A stretch of 59,251 bases of DNA, the filler included, from Dirinaria sp. TL-2023a (lineage: Eukaryota), in the NCBI GenBank assembly GCA_051941275.1. It is 5 parts of 5 records of this genome, joined end to end, with 100 filler letters (N's around TTAATTAATTAA, not from the genome) between each part and the next. Parts side by side here need not be neighbours in the genome. Positions count along the whole stretch, not along the records: positions 47,504 to 59,251 come from JAVEBF010000820.1; 4 more parts are not named here. One strand, written 5' to 3'. This document shows positions 58,570 through 59,251 of this stretch, piece by piece; within the stretch, counting starts at the first letter, position 1; every line of letters starts with the position of its first letter. The notes beneath the pieces are model-generated. The model worked only from the letters and a program-made list of their open reading frames with translations, was not told the DNA's origin and made no database searches. The position numbers and the translations under genes were made by a program.

Positions 58570-59251
58570 AAGGTTGCCTCAGAACTCAGACCCTTTTCGG
58601 GAAGAATTTTTGTTTTCGCGCGTTCCTTCTTTCAACCCTAACCCTTTCTAAGATCTAGATTTAACCCTAAATTGTGATAAATTCGATGAAAATTTAAAGT
58701 TGAGCTAAAGACGAACACTAACAAAGATGCTTTCGATTAAACAAATCAAAAAAGAACGACGTCAAAACAAAATTTTTTTTAAAAAATCTGAGAGCGAAAC
58801 TCAATAATATCGTCGAAACGAAACAATTTCTGATTTTTCATCGATTTATCTAAAAAACTTGACGAATAACACGTATTTGACGTTTAGATTAATAAAATTG
58901 AAATATATTGCGAATTAATAAAATCTCGAATTTCTGACTGCGATTCAAAAAACATATACGAAATTACATCACTGAGTGCGAATAAAAGTTTATCAATAAA
59001 CGATTGAAATGTAGAACATCAAGAATAATCATTTTATTTGTCAGCTATTTAGAATATTATTAAATTATCGATCAAATATTAAATGAATCTCGTTTAATAA
59101 AAAATCATCGAAACAATTGAAAAAAACATTAATATAGATTTGAAGGATTTTGAGACGAATTGAGGAACTCGATCAGATTATCAATTAAAACTATCTTTGA
59201 ATTCGAAGAGCTACTGAGGATTATCACTGACGATGGAGTTCGCGATTCACT
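58570..59251. repeat. AT-rich hypermutated repeat/TE relic at contig end
   Basis: Abrupt switch to very AT-rich sequence. No CC or GG occurs between 58668 and 59144. A plus-strand frame is broken by many stops. Confidence 0.7.

Follow-up and report, generated by a model that had tools for sequence, protein, structure and literature searches.

How can several hundred consecutive bases retain isolated C and G residues and contain not a single CC or GG dinucleotide? The question is raised by the tract at positions 58668-59144 of a 59,251-base stretch of DNA from Dirinaria sp. TL-2023a (assembly GCA_051941275.1), which we refer to as the window. The tract is 477 bp long, has a GC content of 24.5%, and is assigned to no strand; we studied it by composition, shuffles and simulation. 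In this report, we find that it is probably the remnant of a sequence that most likely belonged to a transposable element (TE) or another repeat and was saturated by a transposon-directed C-to-T hypermutation with a preference for cytosines followed by cytosine (CpC). The window consists of five pieces of ~11.8 kb (1-11803, 11904-23681, 23782-35544, 35645-47403 and 47504-59251) joined by four identical linkers (44 N, TTAATTAATTAA, 44 N) at 11804-11903, 23682-23781, 35545-35644 and 47404-47503. Because it is a concatenation, no feature is to be read across the linkers.

The absence of CC and GG from the tract had been reported in an earlier, sequence-only reading of this DNA, which put the number expected from composition at about 15. 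Our recount over the 477 bp (A214, T146, C59, G58) returns 0 CC and 0 GG, and the estimate was close: CC+GG averages 14.1 in mononucleotide shuffles, of which 300,000 yielded no case of zero (Poisson P ~7e-7). No other CC/GG-free run of the window approaches this one in length. The claim that CpG is abundant also holds, with 22 observed against 7.2 expected (a ~3-fold excess) and seven copies of TCGA where about one is expected. Further, TC+GA is in excess (67 observed, 44 expected), and CT+AG (29 versus 44) and TpA (42 versus 66) are in deficit. When the cytosines of both strands are pooled (n=117), the 5' neighbor is T in 67, A in 36, G in 14 and C in none, and the 3' neighbor is A in 44, G in 44, T in 29 and C in none; TCG is the commonest surviving context, accounting for 26 of the 117 positions. 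Two familiar sources of C-to-T change were rejected on these counts: ultraviolet damage, because TC is enriched in the tract and not depleted, and decay of methylated CpG, because CpG is likewise enriched.

The left edge of the tract is sharp, as it starts directly after the last CCC (58665-58667) of a CCCTAA motif. Three such telomere-type hexamers are found at 58636-58670, two of them adjacent at 58636 and one at 58665, exactly on the boundary between normal and CC-free DNA; these hexamers may represent either a telomere-like remnant at an interstitial site or the end part of a lost element. There are no tandem repeats in 58000-59251 and no open reading frame (ORF) of at least 45 codons in the tract. 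Beyond its right edge, positions 59145-59251 (again without strand) hold 0 CC and 4 GG and reach the end of the piece. This imbalance suggests strand-unequal exposure, and the CC-free tract may continue past 59251.

The rest of the window bears on the simplest explanations. AT-richness alone does not account for the depletion, because other AT-rich intervals (12401-12700 and 35801-36100) have normal CC/GG content; AT content had been named beforehand as a possible cause. Genes were said to have normal CC/GG content, and they do: in 18 long ORFs the observed/expected ratio (O/E) for CC+GG is 0.85-1.00 each, with 2735 observed in total and 2920 expected (O/E 0.94).

The tract has no identifiable ancestor, and the direction of change must be read elsewhere. 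The window offers one such place, a relic of the N-terminal part of a Ty3/Gypsy reverse transcriptase at 23029-23484 on the minus strand, which carries an in-frame TGA and has a CC/GG-free core at 23099-23288. Its translation, with X at the stop, has 226 relatives at E≤0.001 in a representative protein library, the best of them 60% identical, and the cluster of this best match holds a 1164-aa reverse transcriptase-RNaseH-integrase polyprotein (P0278). By protein homology, the relic is thus assigned to the reverse-transcriptase region of a Ty3/Gypsy long terminal repeat (LTR) retrotransposon. Where the family has IFPEL, DAGII, SSPWG, KFPPKKKGSP, FIPVN and YPMH, the relic has IFSEL, EADII, SSS*G, KFSSKKKDSS, FISMN and YLVH. 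In a tblastn tally, the relic's codons at reference Pro begin with TC in ten cases, CT in one and CC in two; at reference Gly they begin with GA (4), AG (1), AA (1) or GG (3); and at reference Trp they are TGA (3), TAG (0) or TGG (1). In all, 17 codon changes are of the type that alters the 5' C of CC and two of the type that alters the 3' C (binomial P 0.0007). Counting only nucleotides that at least 80% of 17 intact copies have in common, 11 of 21 CpC sites are C→T in the relic, compared with none of seven CpA and three CpT sites (11/21 versus 0/10, Fisher P 0.005). Because Pro CCN has become TCN, Gly GGN has become GAN and Trp TGG has become TGA relative to the family, CC and GG in this relic were demonstrably lost through C→T change at the 5' C on both strands. 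As a separate matter, the C-terminal ~120 residues of P0278 resemble the RNA-recognition motif of a poly(A)-binding-type protein, and this gene call is probably chimeric, with the element running into a neighboring gene.

Larger samples of the same change were found in relatives of the relic, namely 63 loci (designated by L-numbers) collected in one scan of metagenome contigs with the relic-family alignment. Most of them have normal CC/GG content. A group of contigs has the signature of the window, with whole-locus CC+GG O/E of 0.37 (L039), 0.60 (L041), 0.68 (L040) and 0.79 (L004), and TC+GA O/E of 1.3-1.6. The longest CC/GG-free runs of this group measure 680 bp in L039/L040, 315 bp in L041 and 1493 bp in L037. 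The codons of these copies tell the same story as the relic: Trp positions are TGG/TGA/TAG in 3/13/0 (L004), 1/15/0 (L040) and 0/5/0 (L041), so that these three copies and the relic together have 36 TGA and no TAG. Pro positions whose codon begins with CT are nearly all CTC (10/11 in L004, 9/9 in L040, 4/5 in L041), as expected from CCC, and Gly codons beginning with AG are mostly preceded by G.

The polarity and context of the change can be read against L047, which is closely related to L004, L040 and L041 but unmutated (79% identical, or 95% when transitions are ignored). From L047 to L040, over 3564 nt, there are 274 G>A and 231 C>T changes versus 61 A>G and 40 T>C, and no transversion class exceeds 20. 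Sorted by 3' neighbor, C→T had occurred at 332 of 461 CpC, 81 of 485 CpT, 43 of 295 CpG and 49 of 452 CpA sites. The figures from L047 to L004 are 264/475, 70/495, 28/302 and 51/454 in the same order, i.e. 9-14% outside CpC, with similar numbers of C>T and G>A on the coding strand (204 and 209); in L041, 91 of 129 CpC sites are mutated. A second family gives a fainter version of the pattern: from L002 to L034, 198 of 864 CpC sites differ versus 5-7% in other contexts, and the reverse comparison yields 103 of 750 at CpC. Both of these copies are therefore lightly mutated. When conserved sites of four copies are pooled at an 80% threshold, the fractions are CpC 161/223, CpT 9/30, CpA 8/115 and CpG 0/4; at 65% they are 198/280, 32/107, 23/192 and 8/76. 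The 3' C of CC standing before A was changed in only 3 of 43 cases, and both strands are mutated (21/32 and 39/54 in L004).

As a control on the method, three copies with a classical pattern returned the opposite preference, with CpA changed at 19/49 (L015), 8/24 (L005) and 8/13 (L006) and CpC at 3/86, 1/55 and 4/43; their Trp positions show TAG, with TGG/TGA/TAG of 4/0/10 in L015 and TAG in four cases in L005 and three in L006. Four loci (L005, L006, L015 and L055) carry the pattern of classical repeat-induced point mutation (RIP), with CA+TG O/E of 0.46-0.71 and TpA of 1.27-1.44, and both signatures thus occur among the 63 loci. The contig-name prefix of L055 is common to loci without the classical signature.

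Taken as a record of past substitution, these alignments demonstrate a C→T/G→A polarity, a context order of CpC > CpT >> CpA, CpG, a target at the 5' C, and action on both strands. The sequence-only reading had proposed a C→T mutator preferring the 5' C of CpC, and had suggested polarizing substitutions by context in TE alignments; in the relic (17 versus 2) and in the related copies (332/461 at CpC versus 49/452 at CpA in L040) CpC dominates, and neither CpA nor CpG does. Its stronger statement, that the process is specific for CpC, must be softened. CpC is the main target but not an exclusive one, as CpT is a weaker second target (~0.30 versus 0.71). The window relic (57% identical to L004/L040), L041 and the L002/L034 family (51-53% identical) provide independent support, and the signature extends over several assemblies and no fewer than three distinct Gypsy lineages.

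The mutated zones are element-sized blocks with sharp edges, and flanking genes are untouched. CC+GG O/E falls to 0.18-0.43 in element interiors of 5-7 kb with normal flanks; the depleted blocks have abrupt edges at ~650-7700 in L040 and ~3600-8900 in L004. In L040, positions 700-7500 hold 84 CC+GG against 473 expected, at 37% GC and with a TpA/ApT of 0.61, and the flank at 7800-13002 holds 638 against 673 expected; in L004, positions 4000-9000 hold 162 against 375. These blocks coincide with the interiors of LTR elements. The interiors are bracketed by direct repeats that are themselves unmutated (L040, 128-293 and 7952-8117, 166 bp and 98% identical; L004, 3013-3164 and 9438-9589, 152 bp and 100% identical). 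Within the L040 block, positions 3511-5208 are an insertion of ~1.7 kb that L047 and L004 lack; it contains ~100-bp tandem repeats and a 245-nt duplication, and is less CC/GG-depleted than its surroundings.

A lighter event is captured by L030 and L037, which are 99.1% identical over 10 kb. L037 has a cluster of 30 C>T and 0 G>A changes at 5601-7127, inside a Gypsy element; 19 lie at CpC, seven at CpT and four at CpA, and the four at CpA all come second in a tandem CC→TT. Such a cluster resembles one burst confined to a single strand. The adjoining positions 1-4200 of L037 form a block of 17% GC with 6 CC+GG against 64 expected, within which the 1493-bp CC/GG-free run lies. GpC and CpG are both twice expected there and TpA is ~1, a profile unlike that of the window tract, and the block may reflect the CpC process combined with another.

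These data allow the nature of the process to be weighed. One alternative is slow, spontaneous deamination of 5-methylcytosine on silenced transposons, with a heterochromatin methyltransferase that prefers CpC and CpT. The mutated zones do match element interiors, which are likely heterochromatin, and not exact duplication limits, and L004 and L040 have both shared and private changes, as gradual accumulation would leave. This slow decay is nonetheless unlikely: 56-72% of CpC sites have been converted, against a few percent for reverse transitions and for transversions, and 30 one-strand C>T changes in 1.5 kb between copies that are 99.1% identical are burst-like and not clock-like. Further, we know of no fungal methyltransferase with a CpC preference.

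A second alternative invokes an AID/APOBEC-like deaminase of single-stranded DNA that edits retrotransposon cDNA during reverse transcription. APOBEC3G of vertebrates deaminates the 3' C of CC on minus-strand cDNA, giving GG→AG on one strand. The parallel is a C to U/T change linked to CC in retroelements; the clearest cases here are LTR retrotransposons, the light event in L037 is strand-specific, and LTR-proximal ends are spared. We consider such editing highly improbable, because the coding strand has similar numbers of C>T and G>A (231 and 274 in L040; 204 and 209 in L004), because the 5' C of CC is hit (GG→GA and TGG→TGA, never TAG) and the 3' C is spared (3/43), the reverse of the APOBEC3G pattern, and because a DNA-transposon-like element and non-coding tracts, described below, are likewise depleted.

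Finally, the tract could reflect a sequencing or assembly artefact, such as miscalls at modified cytosines, or plain chance. We regard this as extremely unlikely, given the 0 of 300,000 shuffles and the replication across assemblies: the signature recurs in several independent assemblies and in database proteins of different sources. The depletion also respects element boundaries and places in-frame TGA at conserved Trp. Thus, the evidence most likely points to a RIP-like, repeat-directed process acting on duplex DNA, since the behavior matches RIP apart from its context preference.

If so, the course of events could be as follows. The process would act on duplex DNA, on both strands, where cytosine would be deaminated or otherwise converted mainly before C, less before T, and hardly at all before A or G. 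Once CpC was exhausted, the main reaction would stop; continued weaker attack at CpT would lower GC content further. The end state would be isolated C and G, mostly in TCG, TCA and CGA. From the order CpC > CpT >> CpA, CpG, one would expect the features of the tract, namely zero CC/GG, an excess of TC/GA, CpG enrichment and a TpA deficit.

We examined this expectation by simulation, in which the measured fractions served as hazards and 200 ordinary 477-bp pieces of the window (45-55% GC) were mutated until their GC content was 24.5%. The simulated CC+GG O/E was 0.03±0.05, and 67.5% of pieces reached zero, the value of the tract. Simulated and tract O/E were 2.59±0.56 and 3.07 for CG, 1.01 and 0.98 for GC, 1.35 and 1.52 for TC+GA, 0.47 and 0.66 for CT+AG, and 0.57 and 0.64 for TA. 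Because the simulation reproduces both the CpG excess and the TpA deficit of the tract, these can be regarded as by-products of the process. The tract presumably began as ordinary repeat DNA of ~50% GC.

The same pattern had been said to occur elsewhere in the window, and we agree: the stretch at 1-107, the arms of an element at 29101-29572 (29109-29203 and 29315-29509) and the relic core at 23099-23288 share the C-context profile of the tract. The first of these, where piece 1 begins, is a 107-bp CC/GG-free stretch of 31% GC without assigned strand, in which C follows T or A and never precedes C. The second resembles a miniature inverted-repeat transposable element (MITE); it has terminal inverted repeats, no assigned strand, and TCGA-rich arms that lack CC/GG. 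In these arms, as in the tract, no C context outnumbers TCG. CC/GG are kept in the outermost 11 nt of both ends and in a central segment of ~110 bp (29204-29313). The arms are consistent with the same mutation process, and no copies of the element were found in the 63 fetched loci. The central segment has normal CC/GG and its own short inverted repeat. Beyond it lies a third, internal copy of the terminal motif without the terminal CCs; the alignment of the ends that shows this copy is too poor for counting. Either two copies that were combined or an insertion that came later may explain this arrangement.

The MITE-like arms also bear on the remaining alternative, that the composition of the tract is intrinsic, i.e. 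that it is an AT-rich spacer or a decayed element built of TCGA motifs that never had CC or GG. In its favor are the lack of an identifiable ancestor, the seven TCGA copies where ~1 is expected, the fact that its weak best matches within the window are other TCGA-rich tracts, and the construction of the MITE arms from reiterated TCGA-containing motifs. We judge this origin improbable. CC/GG are normal elsewhere in AT-rich parts of the window; a coding-derived relic whose ancestral CC/GG are demonstrable has this C-context profile too; ordinary DNA, when mutated at rates that were measured independently, reproduces the full dinucleotide profile; and the tract has no tandem or internal repeat structure.

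A number of observations weigh against our reading of the tract as a hypermutated repeat and of the process as RIP-like. Concerning the tract, a sensitive blastn search against the rest of the window returned only matches of E≥0.3, so that a repeat partner is lacking, and blastn and tblastx searches against the 63 fetched loci returned nothing significant. Its repeat origin and ancestral composition are thus assumptions, as it has no recognizable relative, ORF or repeat partner. Its A/T strand asymmetry (214 versus 146) is unexplained by the mutation model, and the simulated CA+TG O/E is too high (1.32 versus 0.99). In the MITE-like element, the CCs retained in the outermost 11 nt of the ends fit the model poorly, and the reiterated TCGA motifs of the arms could be intrinsic motif structure. 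Concerning the related copies, L004 and L040 share 219 mutated sites, compared with 182 expected under independence, next to 113 and 34 private ones; because shared sites exceed expectation, their counts are not independent replicates and in part reflect the same history followed by further rounds. The large-scale evidence comes from other assemblies whose hosts are loosely placed; for a gene flanking L040, the best named match is from a lichen fungus at 53% identity. Finally, two aspects of the distribution would not obviously be expected from classical RIP: the relic is depleted only in its central ~190-280 bp, with flanks that keep CC/GG, and L040 and L004 have spared terminal direct repeats together with the adjoining 250-540 bp. 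Possible explanations for both are a pairing partner that did not extend over the whole element, and a process linked to some feature besides the limits of the duplication.

How, then, does the process relate to known systems? RIP, the textbook genome defense of fungi, is nearly always detected by its CpA→TpA footprint; in Neurospora, CpA is the preferred context and CpC the last. RIP in Neurospora crassa and other Pezizomycotina, which depends on RID or DIM-2, resembles what we see in most respects: all changes are C:G to T:A transitions; they occur densely and often approach saturation, on both strands in heavy cases and on one strand in a light event, and they fall on transposon copies with sharp limits, leaving neighboring genes untouched and producing AT-enriched, dead elements with stop codons. 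It differs in that the context preference is reversed here (CpC > CpT >> CpA, CpG), TpA is not enriched, both classical indices are negative, and element ends are spared. TpCpG-targeted hypermutation of transposons reportedly occurs in Microbotryum and other Pucciniomycotina. This is likewise a RIP-like, transposon-associated C→T change with a preference other than CpA, but TCG is destroyed there, whereas here it is the commonest surviving context and CpG is among the least mutated (0/4 and 8/76).

We therefore entertain, as a serious but tentative proposal, that this lineage runs a genuine RIP pathway in which the converting enzyme has switched its 3'-neighbor preference from CpA to CpC, and then CpT. 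The process would then sense repeats by homology, as RIP does, and would run before meiosis. The enzyme could be a RID- or DIM-2-type cytosine methyltransferase homolog with a changed 3'-neighbor preference, or another deaminase. No RID/DIM-2 cytosine methyltransferase genes are among the genes of the 59,251-base window. If the proposal is correct, comparing the RID/DIM-2 homologs of this lineage and of CpA-type fungi would identify the residues on which RIP specificity depends. More generally, it is evident that the enzyme responsible can evolve in its chemistry or in how it recognizes targets, and the lineage provides a natural specificity variant from which to learn how RID/DIM-2-type proteins, or another deaminase, select cytosines. 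The CpC process also accounts for a puzzling class of DNA that is AT-rich, CpG-rich and TpA-poor.

The gene content of the window is fungal (a Ydc2/Cce1 resolvase, PPR, VPS9 and glutathione reductase, among others). The glutathione reductase is 76-78% identical to its best-scoring named proteins, which come from the lichen-forming fungi Pycnora, Letrouitia, Brigantiaea, many Teloschistaceae and Lecanora; one further protein is 89% identical. As this protein is closest to those of lichen fungi, the host is, on such protein similarity, a lichen-forming ascomycete in or near the Lecanoromycetes.

AT-rich regions affected by RIP have been described in the lichen fungi Cladonia rangiformis (PMC12542154) and Xanthoria (bioRxiv 10.1101/2025.11.25.690456). 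Like the blocks considered here, these are low-GC, transposon-derived compartments of Lecanoromycetes that were attributed to RIP; in the available portions of these reports, RIP is called by GC content or RIPper indices, and dinucleotide context and a CpC preference go unmentioned. GC content or RIPper likewise served to identify RIP in the part at hand of another lichen-genome paper (PMC13535494), and excerpts on Endocarpon report classical RIP indices (PMC3897900). Such indices are CpA-based, as the methods section of PMC7882544 defines them. The CpA preference of RIP is stated in excerpts of PMC12543289 and PMC3897900; the former, a 2025 kingdom-wide survey, describes this preference as shared by RIP-like defenses, and the term “CpC” is absent from its text insofar as that was available. 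Full-text literature searches, whose scope excluded subscription journals and supplements, found no description of a CpC-preferring RIP, so that an earlier report is possible; several hits for “CpC” referred to the CPC culture collection.

That standard RIP indices would miss the signature had been anticipated, and the numbers bear this out. TpA/ApT is 0.66 in the tract and 0.61-0.66 across the mutated blocks and the tract, with (CpA+TpG)/(ApC+GpT) of 1.22 in the tract and 1.22-1.35 overall; by the standard indices, all of these score as not RIPed. TpA/ApT-type indices and RIPper would thus treat regions mutated at CpC as unaffected, and RIP activity in lichen fungi has perhaps been underestimated. 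If RIP with a switched preference is indeed at work, index-based tools systematically under-call RIP in lichen-forming ascomycetes of this lineage.

A few further features of the window deserve mention. A search against Rfam gave 0 matches across it. The interval 25376-25600 (50% GC) has 9 CC+GG versus 28 expected and 26 CpG versus 14 expected; it sits upstream of a run coding for poly-T/poly-K, is not an obvious repeat itself, and is not clearly the same phenomenon. Two short MITE-like elements with inverted repeats, at 15100-15306 and 27547-27730, have a common GCTAGCCAG-containing arm motif, and their arms retain CC/GG; short elements of ~200 bp thus seem to escape the process.

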